From Pirellulales bacterium (GTDB lineage Bacteria > Planctomycetota > Planctomycetia > Pirellulales > JBFWUW01), in the NCBI GenBank assembly GCA_050247075.1, contig JBFWUW010000006.1, positions 37,492 to 101,491 on the forward strand: 64,000 bases of DNA. The letters are read 5' to 3'. Made by a program: the position numbers and the translations under genes. Below the pieces are notes generated by a model. The model saw only the letters and a program-made list of their open reading frames with translations, was not told the DNA's origin and made no database searches. Shown piece by piece: positions 19,854 to 60,080 of the stretch; within the stretch, counting starts at the first letter, position 1; each line of letters opens with the position of its first letter.

Positions 19854-19897
19854 GTCGTTGCCGCAAAGGCACGTTTATCGTGCTGGCATCCGCCAAC

Positions 19898-33048: not shown

Positions 33049-33355
33049 CGGCGAAATCCGTAAGGAAGGAACCCCATTGCCCACGGCTTCCATGATACCG
33101 CCGGGCGGCACTCGCATCAATCAAAGGCGATTCGATCTGGGTAGTAGAAGTTTGCTACTGGTTGAAACAGCGAAACTCTCCATACAGCCCCCGTCCTGAA
33201 ATAGGAAAGTCGGCTCTGTTGCAGGTGCGAATCAAACTGGAGGCGGCTTGCTCACTGGGTGCATGCCATTAGATCTCAAGCGAATTCAAGATCAAACCTG
33301 TTTCCGCGGCCGATGATGCTCACGCGCCGTCGGTATGATTTCGAATCTTGCTGCT

Positions 33356-35127: not shown

Positions 35128-36027
35128 TCACGCCGCGCGATGAAGCTCGTTATCCGTCGGCAAGGATTTGGCCGCGCGGTCCTTGGCGGCGATCGCTGCC
35201 TCGTTAGGAGCGGGCTGTAATGCGGGTGCGCCCCGGGAGTAGCGGCGGTAAATGCCCGCCAGTTCGACGATGGCTTTCAAGAAGTCACTCCGCTTGAGCT
35301 TGGAGCCGGGAACTTCGTGCCATTGCTCCAGGGGAAGTTCGTAAGCCACGTCAACTAGATCGCCTTGCCCCGCTGCCCGATAGGCCGCCTTGAGCCGCGC
35401 GAGCAGTTCTACGTCGAAGATCCACCGCGAAGCAAAGGGTTGTTCTAGTGAAGATTGCAGTAGGGCATTGCGGCGAAATAGCTTGGCTCCACATTGTGTG
35501 TCTTGCAGCGGCAGGCCGATCACCCGCGATGCCGCCAAGGCGAACATTCTGCCCAACAGGCGGCGGAGGCGCTGCCGGCGGATGTCGCGCCCCAGCAGTC
35601 GCAGCCGAGAACCCAGCACGACTTGCACATGCGGCAATCGCCGCAAGACGTCAATGAATCGCGGCACCTCCTGCCAGGGCGTGGCCAGGTCCGCATCGAG
35701 AAAGCCGACAAAATCAGCTGCGGTCGAGCAAGCCGACAACATTCCTTGCCGCACGGCCTCGGCCTTGCCGCCGTTGGCCGGCAAATGCAGCACGCGAATG
35801 GAACGGCCGCTAGAGGCCAATCGGTCGAGCATCTCCCCCGTGCCATCCTGGCTGCCATCGTTGACCATCAGCAACCGCACGCCCGGCGCGGCCTGAACAA
35901 ACCGCTGCCAGGCGGCCAGGTCTAGCCGCTGGGCTTCGTTGTAGCAGGGGACGACGATGACACCGCTCAGCATGGCAGAACCGCTATTCATGGAAAGAAT
36001 CAAACTCGCTTGCCTTCCGGCGGTCAA
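35128..36027 (-). CDS. GT2 polyprenyl-phosphate glycosyltransferase (ArnC/GtrB/dolichyl-P-glucose synthase-like)
   Basis: 299 aa. Contains VVPCYNEAQRL, LMVNDGSQDGT, NGGKAEAVRQGM, FLDADLATP. Its start overlaps the upstream gene's stop by 4 nt. Confidence 0.8.
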   Translation of the reverse strand: MTAGRQASLILSMNSGSAMLSGVIVVPCYNEAQRLDLAAWQRFVQAAPGVRLLMVNDGSQDGTGEMLDRLASSGRSIRVLHLPANGGKAEAVRQGMLSACSTAADFVGFLDADLATPWQEVPRFIDVLRRLPHVQVVLGSRLRLLGRDIRRQRLRRLLGRMFALAASRVIGLPLQDTQCGAKLFRRNALLQSSLEQPFASRWIFDVELLARLKAAYRAAGQGDLVDVAYELPLEQWHEVPGSKLKRSDFLKAIVELAGIYRRYSRGAPALQPAPNEAAIAAKDRAAKSLPTDNELHRAA

Positions 36028-37421
36028 CCAGCGGCTCGCTGCAACAAACGCGAGGCATCGCGCCGCGGCAGCTCAGCCGATTCATCGAGGCTTTCTTGCA
36101 AAGCGGCCACGCCCGTCCCCTGCGGAAGCCTGATGACCAGCCAAACCACCGCCAATGCCGCCCAAGTAAGCAAGTGATACGATTGCAACAACAGCGAAAG
36201 TTCCTCGCCGACGATCGTTCGCCGCGTACCAAGGAATACCACGCCGCAACAGGCCATCAGCCACCATTGCCAACGGGTGATGGTGGCCCCCGCCAATATC
36301 CAACGGCTAAGCAGGTAGATGGCCGGAATGAGCAGGATCAGATGCTGTTTCCAACAGATCGGCGACATCAGCGCCGTGAAGATGCAGGCCACCGCCCAGT
36401 CTTTCAACAGGCCTTGCCGGGTGCTATCGGCGGCCCAACTGCGCCGCATCGTCCAGGCAATCGCCAGGCCCAACAGCAAGATGATGCCATTGACCGTTGG
36501 CTTAGCCCATTCGACCGGCAACGCACCAAACTGGAAGAACAAAGGATGCTTAAGATGCAACGGGTGCCCTGGCGGGTACGTTTCGACGAATCGAGCCAAG
36601 CCTGCTTTCAGGCTGGCATTTCGAATCTGAGGTGCCTCGATGCCGTGCGGAATCGACGGATAAGCCTCGGGCGTGTCACGCATGATTGATGCCGAATTGA
36701 CCAACCAGTATCGATGGCTGGCGATCGTGGTGTCCCAACCCAGGTAAACCGCGGGCAGCAAGTTCAGGCCAACCACGCACATCGCCAATGAAGCGGCCGA
36801 TTTCCATTCTCTCTTCCACAACAGCAACGGCAAGAAGAGCAAGGGAGTCGCCTTGTAGGTCACGGCCGCCGCCAGCCAAAAGCCCGACTGCCACTTGCCG
36901 CCGTGAAATTGTGCATGGGCCGCCAGCGTCAGCAACAGCAGCAAGAAGATCTGCAGTCCGCATTCATCCAGATCGCGGATGAGCAGCGGCAGCAACGCGG
37001 CCAGTGTCAACAAAACCGCTCCCCGGCGCTGCGGCAACCGGCCCGGAAACCAGGCATCGGCCATACGCCCCCACATCGCAAAAACGGCAAACAGTCCAGC
37101 CACCGCTAGCAAATAGCAGACGGCCCGGGTGGTAAAGTATTCGCCCAGTGGCAGCAGGCTGTCCAGCATCAGCCGCCCCAAGGGGTAGTAGTTGCCTTGG
37201 CTGCTGTAAGGGTTGCCCTGCAAAAAGTGCCGCCCAAACTCCAGATGGCAGTTGAAGTCATTGCCGCGCAAGAAGATCGCGTAGCCCCCTTCCACCACCG
37301 CCGCCACGGCTACCAGCCACAACCCAGCCTGTTGCCAGCGAGGGTTGAGATACCAAGGCGGCCGTTGCACGGTACCGCTGGCTGGTCCCCCATCGAAGCA
37401 AATCGTTTCTGGTGACGGCAT
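36024..37421 (-). CDS. Polytopic GT-C-type membrane glycosyltransferase (DUF2029/GT87-like)
   Basis: 465 aa with about 10 or more hydrophobic helices. The first loop has NDFNCHLEFGRHFLQGNPYS...YYPLG, resembling the DUF2029 D/E...YPP loop. Paired with a GT2 polyprenyl-P-sugar synthase. Confidence 0.55.
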   Translation of the reverse strand: MPSPETICFDGGPASGTVQRPPWYLNPRWQQAGLWLVAVAAVVEGGYAIFLRGNDFNCHLEFGRHFLQGNPYSSQGNYYPLGRLMLDSLLPLGEYFTTRAVCYLLAVAGLFAVFAMWGRMADAWFPGRLPQRRGAVLLTLAALLPLLIRDLDECGLQIFLLLLLTLAAHAQFHGGKWQSGFWLAAAVTYKATPLLFLPLLLWKREWKSAASLAMCVVGLNLLPAVYLGWDTTIASHRYWLVNSASIMRDTPEAYPSIPHGIEAPQIRNASLKAGLARFVETYPPGHPLHLKHPLFFQFGALPVEWAKPTVNGIILLLGLAIAWTMRRSWAADSTRQGLLKDWAVACIFTALMSPICWKQHLILLIPAIYLLSRWILAGATITRWQWWLMACCGVVFLGTRRTIVGEELSLLLQSYHLLTWAALAVVWLVIRLPQGTGVAALQESLDESAELPRRDASRLLQRAAG

Positions 37422-37464
37422 CGAACATCCATGTCACGAAGTGGTACGGAGTTTCAACGGGCAG

Positions 37465-39621
37465 TTACCCTGTCTGTCCAAATTGCAGATCGTGCAGCCG
37501 TGCGTATAGGTCGGAACTGCGCAACAATTGCTCGTGCGTGCCAATGGCTTGAATGTGGCCGCCGTTCATCACCACGATCCGGTCGGCCAGGGCCAAGGTC
37601 GAAAGCCGGTGCGTTACAATGATGGTCGTTCGATTGCGCCGAAACTGCTCCAGGACTTTATGGATCAACTGTTCGCTTTCCAAGTCGATTTGGCTGGTTG
37701 CCTCGTCCAACAGCAACAACGGAGGGTCTCGCAAAATGGCCCGCGCCAAAGCAATACGCTGCCGCTGCCCCCCCGACAGCAGATTTCCCCTTGGGCCTAC
37801 CAACGACTCGTACCCGTCCGACAGCTTGTCCAAGATAAAGCGATGGGCCTTGGCTTGTTCCGCTGCCTGTTCAACCTGCTCGCGGGTAGCCCTGGGCGTG
37901 CCGTAGCGAATGTTGTTCAAAACGGTGTCGTCAAACAGCAGCGTTTCTTGCGTGACCAGGCCAATCTGCTGGCGAAGGTCTTTCATGCGGATGTCGCGCA
38001 GATCGGTGCCATCCAGCGTGACCTTGCCGGCCGACGGATCGAAGAACCGAGGAATCAGGTTTAGCAGCGTACTCTTGCCGCAGCCATTGGGGCCAACCAG
38101 GGCGATCGTCTCACCGAAGGGAATCCGCAAGTTGATATCTTCCAGCACGGGAATGCTGGGCCGATACCGAAAGCCAACTTTTTCCAGCGTAAGAGTTTTA
38201 TGATGCCGCGGCAGGCGTAGCGGATTGACGGCTTCGCGAACCGAGGGCTCGCGGTCGAGCATGGCGTAGATGCGGTCGCTGGCAGCGGCGGCACGCTGCA
38301 AACGGTTGAAGATTTCAGACAGCTTGCGGGCTGGGTCGCTCGTGCCCGCCAGCAATCCGTAAAACATCAATAGCGATCCCAAGCTCAATGGGCGGTCGCA
38401 CATGCGGATGCCCAGCAAGTGCGTTTCGCCCTTCAGCACCAGGTAGGCACCGGCCAGCAGCGCCAGGCAAATGGTGAGAATGCCCATAAATTCAATCGTT
38501 GGGCGGCCGAGCGATTCGTACCGCACGATGCGCATCGACTTGTGGAAAAATTGCTTGCTGATCTGGTGAAAGCGCCGCCGCTCGGCCCGCTCCATGGTGA
38601 ATGCCTTGACGACTTTGATGCCCTGTAAGGTTTGTTCCAGAATGGAGTAGATTTGTGACATTTCCTCCATGGCGCGGCGGTTGGCCCGTTTCAACAGGCG
38701 TGCCAACCGGTCGATCACATAGGCGGCCAAGGGGACAATAATCAGCGACAACACCAGCAGCCGCCAACAGACAAAGGCCGCGCCGATGAGGCAGGCAATC
38801 ATCTTCAGCGGTTCGCGAATGGCCTTGCCAAACAGCGAATTCATCCCTTCCGCCACGCTCTCCATATCGTAGGTGAAACGGCTCATGAGCTCGCCCACAC
38901 CATCGTTGTTGAAGGTGGCCATGTCCATTTGAAGCGTGCGGCGGTAGAAGTCGGTGCGCAGATTGAATGTCACCAACAGCGCCAGCCGGCTGGCCAACAT
39001 GGAGTTGCCAATCATGAAGCCGCACTTGAGCAGCGTTCCCAACATCAACAGGCCCAGTACCCACACCAGGGTGGCAAACGGCTCGGTCGGCAAATAGCGT
39101 TGCGCATAGGGCAGCACACGGCGATACCAGCCCGCCGCGCGCTCTTCGCTCGCCAGACGTGTTTCCGCCAGCCGAAGCTCGGACGCCAGTTTTTCTCGTT
39201 GCACGTCGGCCGGTTGCTGGGCCAGCCATTGAGCTTCGGTCTCACGGCGGCGCAAACCTTCCACCAATTGCCGCGATGCAGATGTGCCATTTTTCGCCCG
39301 CTCGGCAGCAGCCAGCTCAAGGCGAACCGTATTGCGATCGGCAACCATTGCCGCGGAAAGTTGGCCGTCGTCTAGCGACTGCCATCCTTGAATCTGGTCT
39401 ACCCGCCCTCGAAACTCGCGGGCTTGATCGTCCGACCGTTCGATTTCGGCGGTAGCCCATTCTTGCAGCGACTGGCCTTTGAAGATGACTTCGACAAACG
39501 GGTAAACCGCGCTGATGTTGCCACCCCAAAGAATGGCCACCATCAAGGCGCAAGTCAGCGACCCGAGGAATGACCAGCGGTGGCGCAGCGCCAGTTTAAG
39601 CGCTCGGGCAAAGTTCTGCAT
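37465..39621 (-). CDS. MsbA-type ABC exporter (fused TMD-NBD) with a ~150-aa hydrophilic insertion between TM1 and TM2
   Basis: 718 aa. Contains Walker A GPNGCGKST, signature LSGGQRQR, Walker B LLLLDEATS. The insert is KGQSLQEWATAEIERSDDQAREF...ERAAGWYRRVLPYAQRY. Confidence 0.85.
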   Translation of the reverse strand: MQNFARALKLALRHRWSFLGSLTCALMVAILWGGNISAVYPFVEVIFKGQSLQEWATAEIERSDDQAREFRGRVDQIQGWQSLDDGQLSAAMVADRNTVRLELAAAERAKNGTSASRQLVEGLRRRETEAQWLAQQPADVQREKLASELRLAETRLASEERAAGWYRRVLPYAQRYLPTEPFATLVWVLGLLMLGTLLKCGFMIGNSMLASRLALLVTFNLRTDFYRRTLQMDMATFNNDGVGELMSRFTYDMESVAEGMNSLFGKAIREPLKMIACLIGAAFVCWRLLVLSLIIVPLAAYVIDRLARLLKRANRRAMEEMSQIYSILEQTLQGIKVVKAFTMERAERRRFHQISKQFFHKSMRIVRYESLGRPTIEFMGILTICLALLAGAYLVLKGETHLLGIRMCDRPLSLGSLLMFYGLLAGTSDPARKLSEIFNRLQRAAAASDRIYAMLDREPSVREAVNPLRLPRHHKTLTLEKVGFRYRPSIPVLEDINLRIPFGETIALVGPNGCGKSTLLNLIPRFFDPSAGKVTLDGTDLRDIRMKDLRQQIGLVTQETLLFDDTVLNNIRYGTPRATREQVEQAAEQAKAHRFILDKLSDGYESLVGPRGNLLSGGQRQRIALARAILRDPPLLLLDEATSQIDLESEQLIHKVLEQFRRNRTTIIVTHRLSTLALADRIVVMNGGHIQAIGTHEQLLRSSDLYARLHDLQFGQTG

Positions 39622-40053
39622 TCAGGCACCGTCCGTGGTGCGATCCGCGACGTTTTCCAGCCTGGCACACGACGCCGGCCGCTAACAGGGCAGCCTTGTA
39701 CCATAACTACCGCTCTGCAACCAAGCCCGACGGCAATCGAAGGCTGGCCAAGGGCTTCGGTAAGGCCGGATTTAATGATAGTGCCGGCATGTAGCATCAC
39801 CAATCATGATGCATGGCCAAGTTTAGGCCCCAAACGGTCGTTCTGGCGTCAGTTCGAGCGGTATCATCACGCACGGGGCCTCTTAAATTATCTATTCTTC
39901 TCACTCTTCTTGTATTAACATAGGAGATCAGGAAAGCTGCGGCAATGCACACCAAACGCTTGACGTGGCAGATAGTTAGATCAATGGATGGAGGGGCCAT
40001 TGGAACGGCTTAACATCAATGCGGTCGAATCTGAATAGCCCGTTGAAGAGACC
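39622..40053. promoter_or_regulatory. Divergent promoter region between the export operon and the biosynthetic operon
   Basis: A 432-nt non-coding spacer between two divergent starts. It includes a visibly AT-richer stretch (about 39880..40020). No specific promoter boxes can be assigned. Confidence 0.45.
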
Positions 40054-41460
40054 ATGACACAGCCCCTGCCGCTGACGCCGTTTGAGGAGTACATGCTCTG
40101 CGACGACCGGCCTGCGCACCCCATGACGGGCTTCTTTCGGCTCCGGTTTTCTGGGCGGTTGGAACGGCCCTCCTTGGAAGCCGCCCTTAGGCTGGCCGTA
40201 TCGCGGCATCCCTTGACGCATTGCAAAGTGCAATCCTGCGGCGGAAAACTAGCTTGGGTGCCTGATGACGGGTTTTCGCTGAAGCTAGAGTGTTGCACCG
40301 CCACTCCCGACCGGCAGTATCCCCGCGCCGGTGCCATGGACCTGACGGCAGCCGCCGGCACCCGGTGCTGGCTGGTCGAGCGCCCGGAGGGGCATGATCT
40401 GGTGGTGCAGATGCACCACTCGGTGACGGACGCCCTGGGAATGTGCCAATTCATCGAGGATGTTCTGCTGGAGTATGCCCGCTTGACAGGCACGGCTGAG
40501 GCGGGCCTTCAATTGCGCGAAATGGACGAAAGTAAGCTGCCTGGACGAAACAAGTTCGGCCTGACATGGGGCCAGTTGCTGCGATTACTGCCACGGCAGA
40601 TGATTGGTCTTTTGGGTGCGCGGCAGGCCCTCATGCGGCGGCCATCCCGCCTGTTGCCAGAGTGTGAAGACTCCTCGGATACCGCAAGGTCCCCTGGTGA
40701 AACCGCGGGCTGTTTTCCCTCGCCCCGTACATTCGTCTTTTCCCCCGGCGAAACCCGGGAGATATTGCAGGCGGCCAAACGGCGCAAAGTGACGGTAAAC
40801 GACCTGCTGGCCCGCGACCTGTTTCTGGCCGTAGGCGAACTGCGCAAGCGGGCGGCATGCGAAACTCCGCGAGACTGGCTGCGGTTCTCGGTCCCCATGA
40901 ATCTTCGCACGCCGGACGACGAGCGGCTGAGCGTGGCCAACGTCGTGAGCATGATTTTTCTCGACCGGCGGCCCGCTGACCTGGACGATGCCGACAAGCT
41001 GTTGCGGTCCATTCAGGATGAAATGCAACTCATCAAGCGTAACCGCCTATCGTTGACGTTCGTGCTGTCGCTGGCCGTGGCACGGCTGTTTCCTGGGGGG
41101 GTACGCAAAATGGTACCTGACAACCGCTGTTGGGCGACCGCCATTTTTTCCAACCTGGGGGTCATTTTCACCAACACTCCCTTACCGCGCCGCGACGGCA
41201 AGCTGTTGCTGGGCGACGTGACGTTGGACGAACTCGACTTTGTCACACCATTGCGTCCCCATACGGCCGCGGCCTGCTGCATCTACACCTATGCGGGCCG
41301 GTTGTTCGTGATGATGCATTGCGACCCGCGTTCGCTGTCGGACGGGCAAACTGACGAGTTGATGGCTGGCTACGTGGCACGGATCCGCGAAAGCATCCAC
41401 ACGGGTAGTGTTGCCCAGTCACCAAACGCCGAAATGTCAGCAGCTACGTGTCCCTCATGA
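40054..41460 (+). CDS. Stand-alone condensation/WS-DGAT/PapA-type acyltransferase (HHxxxD catalytic motif)
   Basis: 468 aa with the ATG preceded by GAAGAG. Contains LVVQMHHSVTDALGMCQFIED, the HHxxxD(G/A) motif of the CoA-dependent acyltransferase superfamily. The size matches a single C domain. Confidence 0.65.
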   Translation: MTQPLPLTPFEEYMLCDDRPAHPMTGFFRLRFSGRLERPSLEAALRLAVSRHPLTHCKVQSCGGKLAWVPDDGFSLKLECCTATPDRQYPRAGAMDLTAAAGTRCWLVERPEGHDLVVQMHHSVTDALGMCQFIEDVLLEYARLTGTAEAGLQLREMDESKLPGRNKFGLTWGQLLRLLPRQMIGLLGARQALMRRPSRLLPECEDSSDTARSPGETAGCFPSPRTFVFSPGETREILQAAKRRKVTVNDLLARDLFLAVGELRKRAACETPRDWLRFSVPMNLRTPDDERLSVANVVSMIFLDRRPADLDDADKLLRSIQDEMQLIKRNRLSLTFVLSLAVARLFPGGVRKMVPDNRCWATAIFSNLGVIFTNTPLPRRDGKLLLGDVTLDELDFVTPLRPHTAAACCIYTYAGRLFVMMHCDPRSLSDGQTDELMAGYVARIRESIHTGSVAQSPNAEMSAATCPS

Positions 41461-41486
41461 ATTCGTGCCAGTAGGAATTTACGCCT

Positions 41487-43073
41487 GTGAAAACCGCCGA
41501 TATTCCGCAGTATTACAACGCCGCCAGTATTTTGGAACGCAATCTTGGCCGGCGCGCTGACAAGACGGCGCTGTTCTCGGCTGAACGCGAGATGACCTTC
41601 GCGCAGGTCGTGGCGGAAGCCAACCGCGTGGGAAACGCATTACTGCGTCTGGGCGTCCGGCCGGGTGAAGCGGTGGGAATCCTGGCACCCGATTGCGCCG
41701 AGTGGGTGACATCGTTCTTTGGCATTCTTAAGGCGGGCGCGGTCGCCGTCAGCTTGAACACACTGCTCAAGCCGGCCGAACATGCCTACGTGGCGCAAGA
41801 TTCCCGGCTGCGGGTGCTGATTGTCCATCAGTCCCTGCTGCCGATGATTCAGCCGGTTCGTGACGGGCTGGCTGGCATCGAACGCGTTATCGTCATCGGC
41901 AACTCCTCGGCGGGTTCAGCCGCCGGGCGGGAAGATATTCGGTTTGAAGATTGGATCAGCCAAGAATCGGAGGAATTGACGGCCGCGCGGACACACCGGG
42001 AAGATATTTGCACATTGAACTACTCCAGCGGTACGACGGGCGGCCCCAAGGGGATTCCCCACGCCCACAAGGACTTGTTGCTGACAGCCCAGTTATGGGG
42101 CGTGGAGGTATTGGGCCTGCGGGAGAGCGACCGCACGTTCGCGGCGGCCAAGCTCTTCTTTACCTATGCCACAGGTGGCAATCTGCTGTTTCCGTGGCAC
42201 GTTGGCGCTAGCGTGGTGTTGATGTCGGCCCCCCCCAGGATCGCCACGAATGTCCTGGAGACAATTGCCCGTTTTCAGCCCACGATTCACTTCAACGCGC
42301 CGACTGGTTACGCCTCGATGTTGGCCGTGAACGATTTGGAACAGTTCGATCTTTCTTCGTTGCGGCTGTGCGTATCGGCCGGCGAAGCCTTGCCCGCACC
42401 GATCTGGCACGACTGGAAGGACCGCACCGGACTTGACATCATCGACGGCATCGGCTCGACGGAGGTCTATCACATATTCCTCTCGAACCGTCCCAACGAT
42501 ATTCGCCCCGGCAGCAGCGGCAAGCCAATGGCGGGCTATGATCTGCGGATCGTGGATGATGCCGGGCAAGATGTCCCCAAGGGCGAGGTCGGCAACTTGT
42601 GGGTGCGCGGCGAATCGACTTCGCTGAGCTACTGGCACAATGCCGAGCAGAGCCGGCGGACCTTCTTGGGGCCGTGGCTGGTGACGGGGGACAAGTACTT
42701 CCAGGACGAGGATGGCTACTTTTGGCATGCCGGCCGCGCGGACGACATGCTGAAAGTGGGCGGCATTTGGGTCTCGCCCACGGAAGTGGAAAGCACGTTG
42801 CTGGGCCATTCAGCCGTGCAAGAATGCGCCGTGGTGGGGCAGGTCGATCACTCGGACCTGATCAAGCCCAAGGCCTACGTCGTTCTCAAGGCCGGCCATG
42901 CCGCCGGCGACGATTTGATCTTGGAACTGATCGCCCACTGCAAAAGCAAGATGGCCGAGTACAAACGCCCGCGTTGGATCGAGTTTGTGTCGGAACTGCC
43001 CAAAACCGCAACCGGCAAAGTGCAGCGTTACAAGTTGCGGGCGGCCGCCGCGGCACTGGCCAGCCAAGTGTAG
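41487..43073 (+). CDS. Benzoate-CoA ligase-family aryl/acyl-CoA ligase (adenylate-forming)
   Basis: 528 aa with a GTG start and AGGAA upstream. Contains YNAASILERNL, LNYSSGTTGGPKGIPH, FAAAKLFFTYATGGNL, DGIGSTEVYHIFLSN, GDKYFQDEDGYFWHAGRADDMLKVGGIWVSP, PKTATGKVQRYKLR. It aligns closely, from memory, to BadA/HbaA-type ligases. Confidence 0.88.
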   Translation: MKTADIPQYYNAASILERNLGRRADKTALFSAEREMTFAQVVAEANRVGNALLRLGVRPGEAVGILAPDCAEWVTSFFGILKAGAVAVSLNTLLKPAEHAYVAQDSRLRVLIVHQSLLPMIQPVRDGLAGIERVIVIGNSSAGSAAGREDIRFEDWISQESEELTAARTHREDICTLNYSSGTTGGPKGIPHAHKDLLLTAQLWGVEVLGLRESDRTFAAAKLFFTYATGGNLLFPWHVGASVVLMSAPPRIATNVLETIARFQPTIHFNAPTGYASMLAVNDLEQFDLSSLRLCVSAGEALPAPIWHDWKDRTGLDIIDGIGSTEVYHIFLSNRPNDIRPGSSGKPMAGYDLRIVDDAGQDVPKGEVGNLWVRGESTSLSYWHNAEQSRRTFLGPWLVTGDKYFQDEDGYFWHAGRADDMLKVGGIWVSPTEVESTLLGHSAVQECAVVGQVDHSDLIKPKAYVVLKAGHAAGDDLILELIAHCKSKMAEYKRPRWIEFVSELPKTATGKVQRYKLRAAAAALASQV

Positions 43074-43132
43074 CCAGGCAATTGCCCGGCTGGGCAGGAT
43101 CGTAATTCCGTTTTCCCTCCGAAGATTCCGCC

Positions 43133-44188: not shown

Positions 44189-44200
44189 TCACACACGACG

Positions 44201-45454: not shown

Positions 45455-45473
45455 TCACTAGAACCAACGAACC

Positions 45474-46742
45474 ATGCCCACCTTGCTTACATTCACGATT
45501 GCCATTTCCGCGGTCCTTATCGGCATGGCCCTGTTTCAGGGAGTGGCGGCCGCCGTGTTCGTGCGGCTGTTTTTTAAGTCCGCGCCGCCGCGCCAGCCCG
45601 ATGCTGAATTGCCGCGAGTTTCCATTTTGTTGTCCTTGCGCGGGGCCGATCCCCATTTAGCCCAGGGCTTGCAGAAGCTCATGTCGCAGGACTATCCCCA
45701 TTACGAGTTGCGAATCGTCGTCGATAGCCAGGAAGACCCTTCGTGCGGGGTCGTGCGGCAGGCGGTTGCCCGCACCGGCTTTCAGAAAGTGGCCGTCAGC
45801 CCCTTGCATAGCCGCAGCGACCGGTGCGGCCTGAAAAACGCCGCCTTGGTGCAAATGGCCGGCGATCTGCCGCCAGAGGCTGAAGTCGTGGTTCTGGCCG
45901 ACGCCGACCTGGTGTCGCACGCTGGCTGGCTGCGCGAACTGGTTGCGCCCTTGGCCGATCCCCGGGTTGGCGCTGCACATGGCAACCGCTGGTTTTGGCC
46001 CCGCCGCGCTTCGTTTGGCTCACTGGTGCGCTACTTGTGGAATTCCGCTGCCGTCGTGCCGATGTACGCCCTGGAAATCCCCTGGGGCGGGACTTTCGCC
46101 ATCCGGGCCGAAGTGCTGCGCGACTCGGGGCTGCTGGACAAGTGGAGCAAGTCGGTCGTGGAGGATGCGCCGGTGCGCACGGCACTGGCCGAGCGCGGGC
46201 TGCGGCTCAAGTTTGTCCCTTCCTTGATGATGGTCAATCGAGAGGAATGCAATCTGCCATTCAGCCTGGATTTCATCAAACGGCAGATGACCTGGACCAA
46301 GATCTACCATCCGCAATGGATCCAGGCCGCGGCCCACGCCGTGGCCACCTCATTGGTACTGGCCGGCGCATTCGTGATGCTCGCCGTGGGGCTGCTGACC
46401 GGACAAAACGAAATAGCCGCCTGGGCGGGCGGCGGGCTGGCGGCCTATGCGGCGGGCATGTTGCTGTTGTTGGCCTTGATTGAGACAGGCGTGCGCCGCG
46501 TGATTCGTACCCGCGGCGAGGCCGTGCATCAGTTCTCGCCAGGCGAATGGTTGAAAATCATCGCGGCCATCCCTTTGACGCAGGCCGTTTATCTGGCCGC
46601 CGTATTGCTGGCCATGTTTCGCAGCACGGTTGCCTGGCGGGGCGTGATCTATGAGATTCGCGGCCCGTGGGACATTCGCTTGATTCAATACCGCCCTTAC
46701 GAGCAAGCAACCCCCACGGCCAACGCCAATGTCTCTCTATGA
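45474..46742 (+). CDS. Membrane GT2/GT21-like glycosyltransferase, paralog 2
   Basis: 422 aa. Contains VSILLSLRGADPHLAQGLQKLMSQDYPHYELRIVVD, LADADL, GNRWF, PSLMMVNREEC. By eye it is about half identical to the preceding gene along its full length. Confidence 0.75.
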   Translation: MPTLLTFTIAISAVLIGMALFQGVAAAVFVRLFFKSAPPRQPDAELPRVSILLSLRGADPHLAQGLQKLMSQDYPHYELRIVVDSQEDPSCGVVRQAVARTGFQKVAVSPLHSRSDRCGLKNAALVQMAGDLPPEAEVVVLADADLVSHAGWLRELVAPLADPRVGAAHGNRWFWPRRASFGSLVRYLWNSAAVVPMYALEIPWGGTFAIRAEVLRDSGLLDKWSKSVVEDAPVRTALAERGLRLKFVPSLMMVNREECNLPFSLDFIKRQMTWTKIYHPQWIQAAAHAVATSLVLAGAFVMLAVGLLTGQNEIAAWAGGGLAAYAAGMLLLLALIETGVRRVIRTRGEAVHQFSPGEWLKIIAAIPLTQAVYLAAVLLAMFRSTVAWRGVIYEIRGPWDIRLIQYRPYEQATPTANANVSL

Positions 46743-47617
46743 CCGTCGAACTCTTATCCCATCAAAATGACATGGCTGGCCGCTTTCGCAATTATCGCTT
46801 GCCTAATGGGGTGGAAATTGCCCATTTCAGCAAAGCCGACACCGATCTGGTCTATCACGAGATTTTCGTCGAGGATGTCTACCGCCAGCATGGCGTTACC
46901 ATCGGCTCGGGCGACGTGATTGTGGATGTGGGTGCCAACGTCGGCTTGTTCGCCTTGTTTGTGAGCCAGATTTGTGACCAAGCCACGGTGGTATCGTGCG
47001 AGCCGGTACCGGCGATCTTTCGCGTCTTGATGGAAAACGCCGCCCGGCACAGCCAGATCGATCTAAGGTTGGTCAATGCGGGGCTGTCGCGGGCACCCGG
47101 CACGGTGGAGTTCTCCTACTACCCCAGGCTGTCATGCGCGTCAACCATGTATCCCGATGACTCGCCGGAAGAGCGTGAAAGGTCCACGGAATACGTACTC
47201 CAGCAGTTCAAGGAACTCCCCAGCAAGCCCCTAAAGGCCGCCATAGGCCTGATGCCAAGGCCTGCCCGCCACGCCTTGGCCAGGCTGGTGCGTCGCCATT
47301 ACACGCGCCGGCGCAAGGTTCTTTGCCGTCTGACGACGCTTTCGGATCTGATCGTGGAACAGCGACTGGAGAGAGTCGACATGCTTAAGCTGGATGCCGA
47401 GCGCAGCGAACTGGATGTCTTGTCCGGCATTCGCGATGAGCACTGGCCGCTGATTCGTCAAGCCGTGGTGGAAGCGCACGACCCGCCCGCCTCCGCCGCG
47501 CTGGAGCGAGTTCTGTCCTCGCGCGGCCTTCAAGTGACGGTAGAGCAAAATCCGCACTTTCCACATATCGCCATGCTGTATGCCACGCGAAAGCCGGACG
47601 AATCGCGGGCGGGTTAA
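46739..47617 (+). CDS. FkbM-family methyltransferase
   Basis: The track ORF 46667..47617 is trimmed to the ATG at 46739, which overlaps the upstream TGA (ATGA). Contains VIVDVGANVGLFALFVS, GTVEFSYY, MLKLDAERSELDVL. Confidence 0.78.
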   Translation: MTVELLSHQNDMAGRFRNYRLPNGVEIAHFSKADTDLVYHEIFVEDVYRQHGVTIGSGDVIVDVGANVGLFALFVSQICDQATVVSCEPVPAIFRVLMENAARHSQIDLRLVNAGLSRAPGTVEFSYYPRLSCASTMYPDDSPEERERSTEYVLQQFKELPSKPLKAAIGLMPRPARHALARLVRRHYTRRRKVLCRLTTLSDLIVEQRLERVDMLKLDAERSELDVLSGIRDEHWPLIRQAVVEAHDPPASAALERVLSSRGLQVTVEQNPHFPHIAMLYATRKPDESRAG

Positions 47618-47626
47618 GCTGCCCGC

Positions 47627-48364
47627 CTATTGCTCAACCTCGATCAGCTTCCGATCCGGATCTTTCTTGTGCCCACGCCCGGCGGGCCAGAAAAGGCGTC
47701 CCAAGAGTTTTCCACCGGCGTAATCTGGTGCGCGATAGAGTTCTTCGACGCTCTCCTCCGGAAAGGGGCAAATGTCACTGCGTACGAAGAAGGCGTTAAT
47801 GCCTCGGCTTTCGCAATAGGCCAGCGTATACCCCTTGCGCCGGCTAAGCCGCGCGAGCGCCAGCAGGCTGGCTCCAAAGTAGTCGGTGCCTCCCCAAGAG
47901 AAACTGGGGTCGTATTCGATCGTCCTGCTTTGAGTGGGGGGAACGGAGGCATTGTACTCCATGACCAGCACGCGAGGCCGATAGCGCGCATCAAGGGCTT
48001 TCCAAACCCAATAGTCGTTGCCATCAATGTCGATGGACAACAAATCGAACTCGTCTGGCACCTGGTGCCTGGCGAACACCTCGTTGATGCTCTCCGCGGT
48101 GATGTTCTCTTGGCGGATAAAGGGATGGTTCGGCTCAACGGCACAATCCATCAACAGCCCGGTCCAACCGTCTTGCTCGCGCAGGCGGCGCGTATTGCAT
48201 TGCCTGGCACCCGGACCCACGCCAAACTCGACACAAAACCGATTGGTGGTGCCAAGCACCTCAAACAAACGGTCAAGGACTCCATCCTCGCCGTTTTGCG
48301 AATAGGTGCGAGATTCGTGCTGCTTCGCCACGAATGGTGAAAGCGCCGCTTGCCCTCGGTCCAT
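47627..48364 (-). CDS. FkbM-like / SAM-methyltransferase-like protein (YSQNGEDG motif family)
   Basis: The track ORF 47627..48382 (TTG start) is trimmed to the ATG at 48364 (MDRGQAAL...). Contains YSQNGEDGVLDRLFEVLG..NRFCVEFGVG, LLSIDIDGNDYWVW. The family assignment is from memory only. Confidence 0.5.
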   Translation of the reverse strand: MDRGQAALSPFVAKQHESRTYSQNGEDGVLDRLFEVLGTTNRFCVEFGVGPGARQCNTRRLREQDGWTGLLMDCAVEPNHPFIRQENITAESINEVFARHQVPDEFDLLSIDIDGNDYWVWKALDARYRPRVLVMEYNASVPPTQSRTIEYDPSFSWGGTDYFGASLLALARLSRRKGYTLAYCESRGINAFFVRSDICPFPEESVEELYRAPDYAGGKLLGRLFWPAGRGHKKDPDRKLIEVEQ

Positions 48365-48520
48365 GCTAATCCCCTTCAACAATGCCGCGTTCCGCTAGGC
48401 TGTTCAAGAACTTACGAAATACACCCGTTGATTCCGCATTCTACGATAGATGATTGAAACGGTTCCATGCGAACATCGAGGCGTTAGAAGCGCTTGAAGC
48501 TTTGGATTGTCTTCTCGCCA

Positions 48521-49291
48521 TCATGCTCGTCGCAACACGAATACCGGCTGCGCGTATTGGCCGGCCGGCTGGTCGAACAGCGCCTCCTCAAACCCAAACG
48601 AGGCAACTTGTTCCCAGCCTCCCAGTAATTGCGGCAACCGCTGGCGACCATAGATACGGTGCGCATTCCAGACCAGCGCGTCGCGGCCCACGGGAACAGC
48701 CAAGAACAAGAGTCCATCCGGCTTGAGCAGCTCGCGCATGTCTTGCATGGCCCGCAAGTCGCCGCGTGGGTTGATGGGATCGCCGTAGCGTCCCAGGCCA
48801 TCGTGTTCAATCGACGAGATCGACAGTGCCGCGTCAAACTGGGTTGGCTGCCGCGCGAATTCCGCGGGCGTTACCACGTTCAGGCCCGGGATGCGGCAAT
48901 CGACATCGCGGTATTCGATCGTCGTCACACGGCCTCCATATTCCGTGCAGACGCACTCGTACCACGGCATCTCCGACCCGACGATCACCACGTTGCGCCC
49001 GCGTATGGGAAATTTTTCCAGGGCCGAATACACAAATGAATCGGTTGCTCCATAGTAGTGCCGCTTGCGGGCCCGCACGCGCGCCGGATTCCATCCCAGG
49101 GAGCGCTCCGTCCAGCGCAAGGGGTGGGTCTTGATATCGTTGACGTAGAGTTGCAACCGGGGAACCTGCCCGTCCTGCGTGAATTCGGCCTCCATTTCAG
49201 TGGGCACTTCCCGCGGCGGGAATTTTCCCGAACGCCAGCCGTTGAGCAGGCTATTTAGCTTGAGGTAGAGAAGCGTGGGGGAATTGAGCAT
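48521..49291 (-). CDS. DUF268-family putative methyltransferase
   Basis: The track ORF 48521..49300 (GTG start) is trimmed to the ATG at 49291. Contains VVIVGSEMPWYECVC...FDAALSISSIEHDGLGRYGDPINPRGDLRAM...GLLFLAVPVG.DALVWNAHRIYG, which matches my recollection of Pfam DUF268. Confidence 0.6.
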   Translation of the reverse strand: MLNSPTLLYLKLNSLLNGWRSGKFPPREVPTEMEAEFTQDGQVPRLQLYVNDIKTHPLRWTERSLGWNPARVRARKRHYYGATDSFVYSALEKFPIRGRNVVIVGSEMPWYECVCTEYGGRVTTIEYRDVDCRIPGLNVVTPAEFARQPTQFDAALSISSIEHDGLGRYGDPINPRGDLRAMQDMRELLKPDGLLFLAVPVGRDALVWNAHRIYGRQRLPQLLGGWEQVASFGFEEALFDQPAGQYAQPVFVLRRA

Positions 49292-49370
49292 GGCGCACAC
49301 ATGAAATGTCGATCACCAACCGGCCAGGGCTATCAGCGGTTAGGTGGCTATTTCGAGCCAAAGGCCGTGG

Positions 49371-50981
49371 TTAAATCTTGGCGGGCACCGGGTTGCGGCC
49401 GCCCACATCCGAGGTTTGCAGTAATGGCGGCAACAGGGCAGTCCTGGGGAAAAGCGACCGATAGAGGGATCGTGTTAAGTCCTCGGCGACTGGCTGGCCT
49501 TGCCAACTCAGGGCCCGCTGAAAACGGCCATACGCATTTGACTGCTCCTCTTGCGCCAAATTTGCCAGTTCTGGACAAGGCAGACTTGCCACATGAACGC
49601 AATTCTTGGCCAGTCCCTCGGACAAACTAACGGGGTGCCCATTGGATAAGGCGATGGTCCAACTGCCGCCGCCAGCGCCTGCCACATTCAGGCCAATAGC
49701 CTGCGTCCGATTGTCGAGGCCATTCGTACCGTTGCCATTTGCGGAATTTCCGTTCTTGCCATTGCCGTTTCCATTGGTTGCGTGGCCGTTGGCGCGGTGT
49801 ACCTGGTTTGTATCCACCAGCGTGCTGCGTAAGTACTCGCCCGCCCAAAAGGAGACTTCGACCTTTTTTGCCTTGCGCTTGCCCCAGCGGTCGGCCTCGC
49901 CAAATTCCAGGTAGCGGTGCAAGGCGGCCTGGTCAATCCGAGGGCAGGGAAGGTCGGCACAGAAACGGATCAAGTTCGTGGTATCAAAAGTTGGGTCGGT
50001 GTGATCGTAAGACTCGTAGGCCACCATGCGGTCGTAGACGCCCCGCTCAAAGTCGTTCATCAGTGAACGGTCTTTTTCGCCAGGCCCGCAATACTCCACA
50101 CCGTATGAGTTGAAATACTTGTAGGCAGCGTCGATGATCTGCCGCGGCGTGATGGGATCGACCGGAGCTAGGTGATAGGTGCCGCCGTGGGCAGTCGGCG
50201 TCAAGAACAGCCGACTCAGAACCTGCCCCACCCAATCGACCGGCACGATATTGCGAGGCTCGTCGCCCGACATGTGCAGCCGGATTGGCGTATGCCGCGC
50301 GCCATTGGCATCGGGATCTTGCCCACGAACCAGCACCGACATCATCTTCAAATACAAATACAGGCCATGATACGTGTTGGTGTATCCGGTGCGCGAATCC
50401 CCCGCGATCACCGCAGGGCGGTAGACGGTTCGCTGATCCAGGAAATCGGCCTCGCGGACCAGCTTTTCGGCCAGGAACTTGCAATGCTCGTAATCGTTGC
50501 GAAACGCCTGCCCGCAATCGAGTTCGTCCTCGTAAATCGTCCCCTGGCGCTGCCCGCAAACGTAGGCGGTGGAAACATAGTGTAGACGGGGCAACCGCAG
50601 GCCGTGGCAAAGCTCCAACACATGGCGGGTGCCGTCTAGATTGGTGGTCCAGGGCTCTTCGCGGCGGTCGCTGCCGTTGAAGACTAGCGAGGCGGCATTA
50701 TGAATGACCTGGTCGCAGTGCCCGGCCACCCACCGCCGGTCGGCCTGGCTTAGGCCCAAACCTTCTTGCTGCACATCGCCGGCCAGGCAGACGGGCCGCG
50801 GCAGTTCCATGGCCAACTCGCGTTCCCAGTGCTGCAGAATGGCCTCGCTCCGCTCGTAAACATTCTCGCGCTCGGAGGGGCGAATGACCAGCGCTAGCCG
50901 CTCACCTTCCAGCAACAAGTCGCGGACAAGATAGCGGCCAACCAGCCCCGTAGCCCCGGTCAATAGAATGTACGAATCCAC
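49371..50981 (-). CDS. Thioester-reductase / fatty-acyl-CoA-reductase-type SDR (NAD_binding_4) with an Asn/Gly-rich linker and an SCP2-like C-terminal domain
   Basis: 536 aa, GTG start. Contains ILLTGATGLVGRYL, HNAASL, YVSTAYV, and YEHCK (YxxxK). The linker is NGHATNGNGNGKNGNSANGNGTNG (DNA 49719..49790). The tail IGLNVAGAGGGSWTIALSNGHPV... resembles SCP2. Confidence 0.75.
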   Translation of the reverse strand: MDSYILLTGATGLVGRYLVRDLLLEGERLALVIRPSERENVYERSEAILQHWERELAMELPRPVCLAGDVQQEGLGLSQADRRWVAGHCDQVIHNAASLVFNGSDRREEPWTTNLDGTRHVLELCHGLRLPRLHYVSTAYVCGQRQGTIYEDELDCGQAFRNDYEHCKFLAEKLVREADFLDQRTVYRPAVIAGDSRTGYTNTYHGLYLYLKMMSVLVRGQDPDANGARHTPIRLHMSGDEPRNIVPVDWVGQVLSRLFLTPTAHGGTYHLAPVDPITPRQIIDAAYKYFNSYGVEYCGPGEKDRSLMNDFERGVYDRMVAYESYDHTDPTFDTTNLIRFCADLPCPRIDQAALHRYLEFGEADRWGKRKAKKVEVSFWAGEYLRSTLVDTNQVHRANGHATNGNGNGKNGNSANGNGTNGLDNRTQAIGLNVAGAGGGSWTIALSNGHPVSLSEGLAKNCVHVASLPCPELANLAQEEQSNAYGRFQRALSWQGQPVAEDLTRSLYRSLFPRTALLPPLLQTSDVGGRNPVPAKI

Positions 50982-51226
50982 GCGGCTTCTCTCCCAATAT
51001 CCATGCCGATAGGGCGTTTAACGCCCACCCCCAAACGGGGACGCAAAAGGGACATGATAAGAGAGGGTAAATGAAATGACAAGAACAAAACGGTAATCTG
51101 GGATATATAAGTGGAATTGATCGACTGCATGGCTAACGCAGCGCGCAATCTCATGTAGACGACAGTCAATATCTCTTTACCAGAAAACATGTTGCGTCTG
51201 ATTAATGAGCCCTGTTTGCCAAGCCG

Positions 51227-52474
51227 TCACTTCGCGGAAGAATAGACATGCACGTCGTAAGGCTTGAACTGGTCAATAAGCTTGCCATTTTTGACCTGTA
51301 CGGTGCGATCCTCGAACAGAACGGTGAGTTTGGCATCTTTCCAGGCTGACGGAAGAATTAGCTTGAACTGCCCTGCGGTGGGTGACGCGTTGATGGCCAA
51401 TGCATATAGGCGGTCGCCCGATTGTCTGGTGGAGACAGTGATGGCATTGGAGCCATCGGCAGGGGCCACGGAAACCGCAGTCGCCGGGTCGGCTTCGCGG
51501 AGCACGAATATCTTGGATGCCTGTTCCAGTTCCTTGAAGAACGGCCTGTGTTCCTTCCAAAACTTGCCGTTCAGCTCCAGGCACCGCTGAAACTCTCGCT
51601 CACGCACCGTGGGGTCTTCGGCCTGCGACCACAGAGCCGCGGCGCTGTTGGGCTTGGTGCAGCGGTATTGGCCGTAATACAGCAGGCCCTTGGCACCGTG
51701 CAGGACCGCCTGATATGCCATGAAGCGGCTTTCGGCCACCGTGGGATAGCCCCGCTCGCCGTACTTCAAAGGATCCCACGACCAGGCTTGCAGAACCAAC
51801 ATGCGGGGCTTGTCGCCGTGGGCTTCCCTCAATCGTTCCAGGTAGTCCCGCATCTGGGTGATGTCTTTGTTGGGCAACCGGCCGTAGCCCTTTTCTCGTG
51901 GAATTGGGTACAGATCGGTCATCACGATGTCCCCTAAGTCCTTCCACGACTCGAACCGGTCGGCGGCCCCCGGCCAATGGCAAACCAGAATCGGGTGATG
52001 GGGATCCTCGCGACGGACCAGGGCTTGGCCTCGGCGAGCCTGATCGACTGGCACCTGATTGAGGATTGGCTCGTCCTGAAACTCCCACATCAGCAAGCTG
52101 GGATGGTCGCGGTAGGTTCGCAACTGCTCGACAACCCGGCCTTCACCGGCATCGTCGGTAATGGCGAAACCATCCACGCCGCGATACCAGACCATTAAGC
52201 CGTTGTCGTGGGCCAAGTCCAATTCTTGTTTCCAGTCGGGGGAGTTCCAGCGGTAATACCCCATCGTATTGAACCCGGCCTCGCGCAACTCCTTCATGCC
52301 TTGGCCCGTTGGATCGTCCAATTCCTCCTGGCAGTAGTACAAGCCGATGGGAAAAAACGGTTCGCCGCGCACGAGAATGGTCTGGTCATCACGAAACGTC
52401 ACCCCCTGTGGCGGATCGGCCAGACAGGGAGCCGCCGACAGCAGGAAGGCGAACAAGATGAGGAATAGTTTCAT
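51227..52474 (-). CDS. Secreted TIM-barrel glycoside hydrolase-like protein (clan GH-A-like)
   Basis: The track ORF 51227..52546 is trimmed to MKLFLILFAFLLSAAPCLA at 52474. Contains FFPIGLYY, AGFNTMGYY, SLLMWEFQDEP (candidate acid/base Glu). The GH family is not assignable by eye. Confidence 0.5.
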   Translation of the reverse strand: MKLFLILFAFLLSAAPCLADPPQGVTFRDDQTILVRGEPFFPIGLYYCQEELDDPTGQGMKELREAGFNTMGYYRWNSPDWKQELDLAHDNGLMVWYRGVDGFAITDDAGEGRVVEQLRTYRDHPSLLMWEFQDEPILNQVPVDQARRGQALVRREDPHHPILVCHWPGAADRFESWKDLGDIVMTDLYPIPREKGYGRLPNKDITQMRDYLERLREAHGDKPRMLVLQAWSWDPLKYGERGYPTVAESRFMAYQAVLHGAKGLLYYGQYRCTKPNSAAALWSQAEDPTVREREFQRCLELNGKFWKEHRPFFKELEQASKIFVLREADPATAVSVAPADGSNAITVSTRQSGDRLYALAINASPTAGQFKLILPSAWKDAKLTVLFEDRTVQVKNGKLIDQFKPYDVHVYSSAK

Positions 52475-56943: not shown

Positions 56944-57012
56944 GCGACGGACGAGTCGCGCAGCGCGGAGCACGCGACGTTCGCCGGCCTAACTCGAGAA
57001 CACGACAGAACC

Positions 57013-60072: not shown

Positions 60073-60080
60073 CACGGAAC

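Follow-up and report, generated by a model that had tools for sequence, protein, structure and literature searches.

A candidate glycolipid gene module of Planctomycetota and its elaborated copy in a Pirellulales bacterium

Thirteen genes on a contig of a Pirellulales bacterium (JBFWUW010000006.1, assembly GCA_050247075.1) pose the question of which of them act together and what they make. The genes, numbered G1–G13, lie in a window of 64,000 nucleotides (nt; contig positions 37,492–101,491), and those at the centre encode a condensation-fold acyltransferase (G4), an aryl-coenzyme A (CoA) ligase (G5), methyltransferase-type proteins (G6 and G9–G11), two membrane glycosyltransferases (GTs; G7 and G8) and a thioester reductase (G12) (Table 1). 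A sequence-only reading of the same DNA had proposed a locus for tailoring an envelope glycoconjugate or glycolipid, composed of two convergent operons and a divergent export operon. The core of this idea is right, and its boundaries are too generous. The chance is about even that G4–G12 (positions 40054–50981) represent an elaborated, lineage-specific form of a module found widely across Planctomycetota. That these genes make an exported glycolipid free of glycerol and phosphate is a balanced proposition, and the product is assigned with middling confidence to the fatty alcohol or diol glycosides, O-methylated and aryl-acylated.

Homologues of the central genes recur together in other genomes. 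An alignment of G4 homologues, restricted to one genome per species, led to 80 loci, nearly all labelled Planctomycetota, in which the neighbours were typed by tblastn and de novo clustering. The only recurrent neighbours of the acyltransferase gene are GT21-like genes (14 loci), thioester reductase genes (13 loci) and genes for MMPL transporters, classical short-chain dehydrogenases/reductases (SDRs) and epimerase-like SDRs. The only named cultured strain among the retrieved loci, Bythopirellula polymerisocia Pla144 (L027; L numbers denote the loci), carries the acyltransferase gene with an MMPL gene. A scan of metagenome contigs anchored on GT21-like genes added 80 further loci, in which the acyltransferase (40 of 80, mostly directly upstream on the same strand) and the reductase (39 of 80) are found again. 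A second GT21-like paralogue occurs in 11 of these 80 loci, a G6-type methyltransferase in nine and a G9-type FkbM gene in two; many encode an MMPL protein of ∼780 residues, and in others the neighbours include a polysaccharide pyruvyl transferase gene or methyltransferase genes of the LCM or small class I type. A homologue of the acyltransferase or of the reductase is found within 3 kb in 22 of the 23 GT21-anchored metagenome loci that have at least 3 kb on both flanks.

A third set of loci was reached independently, from homologues of the DUF268 gene G11. Two of them (L164 and L173) are arranged as reductase, FkbM, an uncharacterised 300-residue protein, DUF268, GT21 and acyltransferase genes. 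Another (L165) has GT21, acyltransferase and reductase genes and a G10 homologue (66% identical) that directly adjoins the DUF268 gene, and the last (L167) has MMPL, reductase, epimerase-like, Rieske oxygenase, DUF268, GT21 and CMAS-type lipid methyltransferase genes. The reductase and a GT21-like gene are present in all four and the acyltransferase in three, L167 being without it. Because the homologues co-localise repeatedly in other Planctomycetota loci, gene linkage assigns G4 and G6–G12 to one recurrent system, in which the plus-strand operon makes up a single predicted unit with the convergent reductase operon, as the sequence-only reading had proposed for a lipid-linked glycoconjugate. 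That reading had named scattered, never syntenic homologues as the outcome that would defeat it; those of G4 and G6–G12 recur together, and those of G1–G3 and G13 do not.

Table 1. Positions and assignments of the genes and reading frames discussed; G genes and unlabelled frames are numbered from the first letter of the window, L entries from their own locus.
Feature	Position	Strand	Assignment
G1	35128..36027	-	GT2, polyprenyl-phosphate-sugar synthase type, translationally coupled to G2; membership doubtful
G2	36024..37421	-	GT87 GT-C membrane glycosyltransferase; membership doubtful
G3	37465..39621	-	ABC exporter, half-transporter type (ABC_membrane + ABC_tran)
G4	40054..41460	+	free-standing condensation-fold acyltransferase; HHSVTD at residues 121-126
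G5	41487..43073	+	aryl-CoA ligase, AuaEII-like; predicted anthranilate-type substrate
G6	43133..44188	+	class I S-adenosylmethionine (SAM) methyltransferase, N-terminal extension of ∼100 residues
G7	44201..45454	+	membrane GT2, GT21/ceramide-glucosyltransferase-like
G8	45474..46742	+	G7 paralogue, second lipid-type glycosyltransferase
G9	46739..47617	+	FkbM-family methyltransferase; start overlaps G8 stop by 4 nt
G10	47627..48382	-	251 residues, weakly FkbM-like, DUF268 partner
G11	48521..49300	-	DUF268 protein, class I SAM-methyltransferase fold (model)
G12	49371..50981	-	NAD(P)H thioester reductase, low-complexity linker, degenerate SCP2-like C-terminal domain
G13	51227..52474	-	no recognised family; probably outside the system
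Flanking gene	29689..33120		PSCyt1, PSCyt2 and PSD1 domains
542-residue frame	33356..34984	-	no Pfam family
367-residue frame	16720..17823	+	no Pfam family
259-residue frame	62198..62977	+	no Pfam family
Nitrate/nitrite block	52964..61495	+	nitrate/nitrite assimilation
L001 frame	13209..21335	+	hybrid PKS-NRPS, >2709 residues
L076 gene set	1..11380	+	co-directional PKS-like to acyltransferase genes
L164 frame	9006..9917	-	DUF268-adjacent, ∼300-320 residues
L165 frame	10819..11769	-	DUF268-adjacent, ∼300-320 residues
L166 frame	10753..11712	+	DUF268-adjacent, ∼300-320 residues
L173 frame	9016..9924	-	DUF268-adjacent, ∼300-320 residues

The layout of the locus was recomputed in the window. All 13 open reading frames (ORFs) of the earlier reading are present with the coordinates and strands that it gave, and its distances are likewise exact: the plus-strand operon G4–G9 has intergenic gaps of 26, 59, 12, 19 and −4 nt, the convergent stops of G9 (47617) and G10 (47627) are 9 nt apart, and the divergent spacer between G3 and G4 (39622–40053) is 432 nt long. 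G1 and G2 overlap by 4 nt. Most of its family calls were significant in the Pfam and NCBIfam profile check that it had itself called for. The reported lack of carrier protein, polyketide synthase (PKS), nonribosomal peptide synthetase (NRPS) and nucleoside diphosphate (NDP)-sugar genes agrees with two scans: positions 35000–52600 are free of phosphopantetheine-attachment motifs in every frame, and no PKS/NRPS, NDP-sugar or anthranilate-synthesis genes were found among the scanned ORFs of the window. MMPL, SDR and epimerase-like partner genes were looked for in the window, and none was found. A promoter and terminator scan of positions 35000–53000 gave counts at or below shuffled expectation, so no inference on operons was drawn from it.

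The reductase G12, called a thioester-reductase SDR in the earlier reading, matches NAD_binding_4 (PF07993) with an E value of 2.3e-45 and a score of 155 (cutoff 20.1); its score for the thioester reductase domain model TIGR01746 (128.5) is below the cutoff of 213.35. The best match in the Protein Data Bank (PDB) is the terminal reductase of MxaA from the myxalamid pathway (2e-23), compared with 2e-4 for a fatty acyl-CoA reductase (FAR). By sequence, G12 thus resembles PKS/NRPS terminal reductases more than FARs. The SCP2-like tail that had been reported for G12 holds for the family but not for the window copy. A profile built from 13 family tails and searched against the PDB matches only SCP2-fold domains (alkylsulfatase C-terminus, 3e-5; MFE-2 SCP2, 0.01–0.03; SCP2 itself, 0.6). 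The tails across the homologues conserve a G-P-G-G-G-Q-W ... G-N pattern, and the L165 homologue has a weak precomputed PF02036 match. The tail of the window copy has no Pfam SCP2 match even at E ≤ 10. The domain is best described as SCP2-like at the family level and as a putatively degenerate version in the window. Residues ∼395–430 of G12 form an Asn/Gly-rich low-complexity linker, NGHATNGNGNGKNGNSANGNGTNG, between the reductase domain and the tail, and the homologues have other linkers or none in its place.

G7 and G8 are 42% identical and both exceed the GT21 cutoff of PF13506 (38.4 and 34.4 against 21.7), so that the two GT21-like paralogues of the sequence-only reading stand. Each has hydrophobic segments at the N- and C-terminal ends. 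The best PDB match of the family profile is ceramide glucosyltransferase, at 3e-14 and over nearly the full length, and G7 would place a first sugar on a lipid hydroxyl. The best NCBIfam model for both proteins is HpnI (TIGR03472), with 70 and 102 bits. An identification as HpnI was rejected because these scores are far under the equivalog cutoff of 310 and no hopanoid genes are found in the window.

G4 carries the HHxxxD motif for which it had been called an acyltransferase, in the form HHSVTDA, and residues H121, H122 and D126 are invariant across 23 homologues. The assignment holds for the motif but does not extend to the PapA5 or wax synthase families. G4 scores 51.8 bits against the wax ester synthase/diacylglycerol acyltransferase (WS/DGAT) model TIGR02946 (cutoff 309.95) and 24 bits against the PapA5 model NF006787 (cutoff 396), and both candidates were rejected. 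Among Pfam families, WS_DGAT_C matches the C-terminal half only (1.4e-6; 28.8 against a cutoff of 20.7), and PapA_C (PF16911; 2.9e-5, 24 bits) does not reach its cutoff of 30. A sequence search of the PDB with G4 returned no matches. An AlphaFold2 (AF2) model built on 23 homologues (predicted local distance difference test score, pLDDT, 89.5) was compared with the PDB by Foldseek and matches AzeD, SgcC5 and the C, E and Cy domains of NRPSs (E values of 5e-22 to 1e-17, template-modelling (TM) scores of 0.6–0.7), as well as CmnI; PapA5 (1q9j) is found at rank 31. The predicted model combines the HHxxxD motif with the two-lobed, chloramphenicol acetyltransferase-like fold of the NRPS condensation-domain superfamily. 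G4 is accordingly modelled as a stand-alone acyltransferase of the NRPS condensation type by fold, outside the WS/DGAT and PapA5 families by score. In about half of the GT21-anchored loci, a G4 homologue is the gene next upstream of the GT21-like one, and the proposed role of G4 would be to move an aryl or acyl group from CoA to the glycolipid. As to the analogy to FAR plus wax synthase drawn in the earlier reading, G12 is nearer to MxaA than to FARs, and a WS/DGAT wax-ester system is unsupported by either score or context.

The call of G5 as a member of the benzoate-CoA ligase family was borne out (TIGR02262, 573.9 bits; cutoff 375.25), and the assignment can be made far more specific. G5 is 67% identical to the anthranilate-CoA ligase AuaEII (PDB 4WV3) over 519 aligned residues, its full length (E = 1.6e-239), and solved benzoate-CoA ligases reach half the score of 4WV3. 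AuaEII makes anthraniloyl-CoA in aurachin biosynthesis (PMC10295502). It contacts anthranilate through F220, T221, F222, A293, G318, C319, H324 and I325, and T221 forms a hydrogen bond with the amino group (review, PMC11253843). Six of these eight residues, including T221, are kept in G5, and two are changed (F222Y and C319S). G5 is therefore predicted to activate anthranilate or a closely related ortho-substituted benzoate; because two pocket residues differ, the true substrate could be an anthranilate or benzoate that bears substituents.

Most reductase/acyltransferase/GT21 modules carry no ligase. Only the nearest relatives (L001 and L081–L083) pair the acyltransferase with a ligase, and their ligase orthologues are 73–74% identical to G5. 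In L081–L083, the acyltransferase (58%) and ligase (74%) genes are followed by a gene for a FAD_binding_3 monooxygenase. In L001, the acyltransferase (53%) and ligase (73%) genes are followed by a hybrid PKS-NRPS gene with the domain order KS-AT-DH-cMT-ER-KR-ACP-C, which runs off a contig labelled Verrucomicrobia and suggests an anthranilate-type-capped polyketide in that organism. In a rough neighbour-joining tree, G4 of the window groups with the ligase-linked copies, and in the other clades of the family the linked genes are those for GT21, the reductase and MMPL. These relationships suggest that the acyltransferase and ligase are a portable aryl-capping pair, which here fills the acyltransferase position of the module; a ligase close to AuaEII paired with a condensation-fold transferase is of natural-product interest in its own right. 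In a locus that is less closely related (L076), co-directional genes encode a PKS-like protein (KR, DH), a phosphopantetheinyl transferase, an SDR, a thioester reductase, a class III aminotransferase, an AMP-ligase and a condensation-fold acyltransferase, a layout that suggests a route from fatty aldehyde through fatty amine to N-acyl amine.

Four methyltransferase-type genes had been listed, and three of the calls passed. G6 matches Methyltransf_11 (3.4e-14) as a class I enzyme, and homologues that share 40–47% identity with it neighbour the GT21/acyltransferase module in L034, L045 and nine metagenome loci. G9 exceeds both FkbM cutoffs (TIGR01444, 91 against 37.7; PF05050, 48.2 against 22.7) and has homologues within the module in L087 (47%) and in L144 and L164 (37%); L173 has a Pfam FkbM gene, which weakly matches the model of Vibrio cholerae RfbT. 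G11 is a clear DUF268 protein (PF03269, 9e-34; 117.2 against 25) with homologues (58–64% identity) inside the module in L164, L165, L167 and L173. Its AF2 model (pLDDT 94.9) matches only class I SAM methyltransferases in Foldseek (E ∼1e-6, TM scores of 0.4–0.5), all of them distant, with no close solved relative. The FkbM-like call for G10 falls below the PF05050 cutoff (E = 1.6e-3, 19 against 22.7). A literature search found no characterisation of DUF268, and the domain was mentioned only in nematode glycosylation-gene clusters.

Additional genes were observed around DUF268. A family of ∼300–320 residues with no Pfam match directly adjoins the DUF268 gene in four loci, and its L164, L165 and L166 copies are 42–54% identical to one another. 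L166 has this gene outside any glycolipid module, and the window has no copy of it. The contig of P0126 carries a DUF268 homologue (62% identical) with FkbM, GT1 (UDPGT), LMF1-like membrane protein, polyprenyl synthase fusion and IspH genes, an apparent isoprenoid-glycoside context for a DUF268/FkbM pair.

The divergent operon G1–G3 had been counted as the export arm of the system, a link that consists in adjacency in this genome. No homologues of G1, G2 or G13 were found near the module in about 170 loci, and the sole G3 homologue near it (41% identity) is ∼6 kb from the acyltransferase gene in L072. G2 matches PF09594 (1.1e-15; 58.5 against 25), and its homologues are named GT87 family proteins in their sources. 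GT87 homologues at 66%, 49% and 44% identity have neighbourhoods unrelated to the module, and the GT87–GT2 pair is kept in one locus only, L171 (GT87, 67%), where a peptidase gene follows. Because these contexts are unrelated and the pair is kept only in L171, G1 and G2 are regarded as an independent two-gene unit; G1–G3 were rejected as an established part of the system, all four GT87 homologue contexts being unrelated to the module. G1 itself matches PF00535 (2.5e-21), and the PpgS and ArnC models match it weakly. The call of G3 as an MsbA-type exporter is right in that it is an exporter-type ABC protein but not in the MsbA equivalog (TIGR02203, 445.5 bits; cutoff 602). A ∼180-residue N-terminal extension of G3, with one hydrophobic segment and then a charged Glu/Arg/Ala-rich stretch, precedes the standard six-helix exporter domain and is covered by no family model. 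Elsewhere the module is usually served by an MMPL exporter; with no MMPL gene in the window, G3 may substitute as the exporter, which is speculative.

G13 had been placed in the locus as a secreted protein resembling glycoside hydrolases (GHs). It matches no Pfam (to E ≤ 10) or NCBIfam family, and its best PDB sequence matches are GH2/GH158 barrels at E ∼0.06, which leaves the GH label without a family behind it. Never found near the module among the about 170 loci, G13 probably lies outside the system. Its N-terminus is signal-peptide-like if translation starts at 52474.

A pathway can be proposed for G4–G12. Its lipid character is inferred from the MMPL neighbours, the SCP2-fold tail of the reductase and the membrane GT21 proteins, whose best solved relative is ceramide glucosyltransferase. 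G12, with its SCP2-like tail holding the lipid chain, would act on the thioester of a fatty or hydroxy-fatty acid and release a primary alcohol or diol, or else a fatty aldehyde. G7 and then G8 would add a first and a second sugar to the primary hydroxyl on the inner side of the cytoplasmic membrane, and G6, G9, G10 and G11 would methylate the glycoside. G4 would esterify a free hydroxyl, the donor in this lineage being the aryl-CoA from G5. Export, normally by MMPL, would follow, here perhaps through G3, with any later decoration by G1 and G2 speculative. In a variant of this route, a 1,3-diol would be mono-acylated first and then glycosylated, yielding a two-tailed glucosylceramide mimic, which fits because reductase, acyltransferase and GT is a common gene order in other loci.

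Several points weigh against this pathway. Its proposed chemistry derives from family knowledge and gene linkage, and the order in which the steps would run is a guess, as is the acceptor of G4. In a plain wax ester no hydroxyl is left to glycosylate, and a diol or a sugar hydroxyl is therefore assumed. The SCP2-like tail, invoked as lipid holder, is degenerate in the window copy of G12, and neither NDP-sugar nor anthranilate-supply genes are among the window ORFs scanned. Moreover, many of the close homologues of G4 are 'orphans' whose neighbours are unrelated, and in L001 and L076 relatives of the acyltransferase and reductase stand beside PKS genes, which indicates that the family is not bound to one scaffold.

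Four other explanations were weighed. One concerns the unity of the locus: the 17-kb stretch could comprise three independent units (G1–G3, G4–G12 and G13), with the acyltransferase-ligase pair beside a glycolipid module by chance. This is unlikely, as is the general role in exporting envelope glycans or lipids that it gives to G1–G3. In its favour, G13 and G1–G3 are absent from the about 170 module loci, bar the distant G3 homologue in L072, and GT87 homologues recur in unrelated contexts with only the GT87–GT2 pairing repeated. The acyltransferase-ligase pair also occurs in L001 and L081–L083 with no GT21 or reductase genes, and a promoter-like site between G13 and G12 has 10 of 12 matches, as a consensus match only. 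Against it, the gene most often found directly upstream of a GT21-like gene encodes an acyltransferase of this very family, so that an acyltransferase heading the G6–G9 operon is the expected layout and no accident; the 26- and 59-nt gaps also favour co-transcription. A soluble aryl glycoside is a rather improbable product. In this case G5 would provide anthraniloyl-CoA, G12 would reduce it to 2-aminobenzaldehyde or 2-aminobenzyl alcohol, G7 and G8 would glycosylate, and the methyltransferases and G4 would tailor the product. The reduction would follow the logic of a split carboxylic acid reductase, a notion that is equally hard to credit. The likeness of G5 to AuaEII, the greater proximity of G12 to the terminal reductases of PKS/NRPS systems and to the R domains of carboxylic acid reductases than to FARs, and the secondary-metabolite genes that travel with the ligase and acyltransferase of the nearest relatives would all suit such a route. 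It is opposed by the rarity of the ligase among the modules, by the SCP2-type lipid-binding tail of the family reductase, by the MMPL and CMAS-type lipid genes that are common neighbours, and by GTs that are membrane-embedded and closest to ceramide glucosyltransferase.

The same GT relationship would accord with a ceramide-like or N-acyl amine lipid, for which G12 would supply an aldehyde, an aminotransferase encoded elsewhere the amine and G4 the amide, and G7 and G8 would act as glucosylceramide synthases. The NRPS condensation fold of G4 and the L076 order of reductase, class III aminotransferase, ligase and acyltransferase point the same way. This is nevertheless a very unlikely outcome: no aminotransferase gene is found in the window cluster or in most module loci, and an amidated simple fatty amine offers the GT no hydroxyl. 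Tailoring of a hopanoid or other isoprenoid alcohol, with G7 and G8 acting like HpnI on a polyol side chain before methyl and acyl decoration, is highly improbable. HpnI as the best NCBIfam model, the single DUF268/FkbM context with polyprenyl synthase, IspH and GT1 genes, and the MMPL/HpnN-type exporters among the neighbours are in its favour, set against the HpnI scores far below the cutoff and the absence of squalene, hopene and radical-SAM hopanoid genes from the window and from the recurrent neighbours. It also gives the ever-present thioester reductase no role.

The exported glycolipid proposed for G4–G12 was compared with characterised systems. A literature search for planctomycete glycolipid, reductase and MMPL clusters, of incomplete coverage, found no characterised pathway with this gene set, in agreement with the sequence-only reading. 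The nearest characterised logic, a reductase, a GT and an exporter, is that of the cyanobacterial heterocyte glycolipid islands (hgl/hgd), likened here by gene logic rather than by comparison of the hgl proteins. In these islands a thioester reductase yields a long-chain alcohol or 1,3-diol, a GT attaches a hexose at its primary hydroxyl, and a dedicated ABC exporter carries the lipid to the envelope; many of the islands also have an epimerase/dehydratase-like gene (PMC11804610). Unlike the islands, the window cluster has no PKS or acyl carrier protein (ACP) and falls outside the hgl pathway as defined by its members; the module GT is of the GT21/ceramide-glucosyltransferase type, and the usual exporter is MMPL, not DevBCA/HgdBC. 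Beyond the hgl set, the module brings in an aryl-CoA ligase, an acyltransferase of condensation fold and as many as four methyltransferases.

An analogy to mycobacterial phenolic glycolipid (PGL) and p-hydroxybenzoic acid derivative (p-HBAD) loci, suggested earlier, holds in logic and not in homology. These loci, together with the phthiocerol dimycocerosate and glycopeptidolipid loci, share with the system described here a ligase that activates an aryl or acyl group, a PapA-type HHxxxD fold (PapA5/PapA3 in mycobacteria), glycosylation followed by O-methylation and export of the MMPL type for a glycolipid of the cell surface. They are PKS-based, whereas the window cluster has no polyketide synthases, and G5 and G4 score far below the FadD22 (209 bits against 1228) and PapA5 (24 against 396) cutoffs. 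The glycosyltransferases of these mycobacterial loci are soluble GT1-type enzymes, unlike the membrane GT2/GT21 proteins of the window. G4 shares its two-lobed fold and HHxxxD motif with SgcC5, AzeD and CmnI, at 13–18% identity to solved structures. SgcC5-type enzymes take carrier-protein-bound donors; in contrast to their systems, the window cluster encodes no carrier protein. In Stigmatella aurantiaca, AuaEII supplies a type II PKS by way of the transferase AuaE and an ACP (PMC10295502). G5 has the same length as AuaEII and keeps the Thr that binds the amino group, but its partner is a condensation-fold acyltransferase, and no KS, ACP or AuaE is found in the window cluster. GT21 enzymes of the Pgt type make glycosyl-diacylglycerols in Agrobacterium and Mesorhizobium (PMC8231724). 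G7 and G8 pass the GT21 cutoff; the match of their family profile to ceramide glucosyltransferase is distant by its E value, the HpnI cutoff is missed, and nothing in the ceramide glucosyltransferase, Pgt and HpnI systems corresponds to the constant pairing of the module GTs with a thioester reductase.

A broader reading is tentative and, on balance, doubtful. The module might represent a phylum-wide, undescribed class of glycerol-free glycolipids, namely glycosides of alkanols or alkanediols that the three core enzymes (SCP2-tailed thioester reductase, condensation-fold acyltransferase and ceramide-glucosyltransferase-like GT) would make and MMPL proteins would export. Here they would be poly-O-methylated, anthraniloyl-capped (hence fluorescent), exported by an ABC protein and perhaps extended in the periplasm by the GT87 and GT2 enzymes. 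Planctomycete envelopes are unusual, and a large share of planctomycete lipids lacks assigned genes. The compact core of reductase, acyltransferase and GT21-like genes, often with MMPL, is a concrete target for lipid chemistry and genetics in many environmental Planctomycetota loci. A phosphate-free glycolipid would bear on membrane remodelling and environmental lipid biomarkers; an ordinary accessory glycolipid would make this a useful annotation and no surprise.

The remaining genes of the window are unrelated to the module and include sulfatase, Ser/Thr kinase, histidine biosynthesis, cardiolipin-synthase-like phospholipase D and nitrate/nitrite assimilation genes, besides the flanking gene with PSCyt1 and PSD1 domains (Table 1). 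Three ORFs have no Pfam family; the 542-residue one lies directly downstream of G1 on the same strand and has no NCBIfam match and no useful Pfam match at E ≤ 10. The nitrate/nitrite block directly past the locus encodes, besides a major facilitator superfamily transporter and a molybdopterin oxidoreductase, an Fe-S/DmsC-like fusion and a large nitrite reductase of the NirB type (1019 residues) to which a Rieske domain is fused. The 66% identical GT87 homologue in L168 is also near glutamate synthase and nitrite/sulfite reductase genes.

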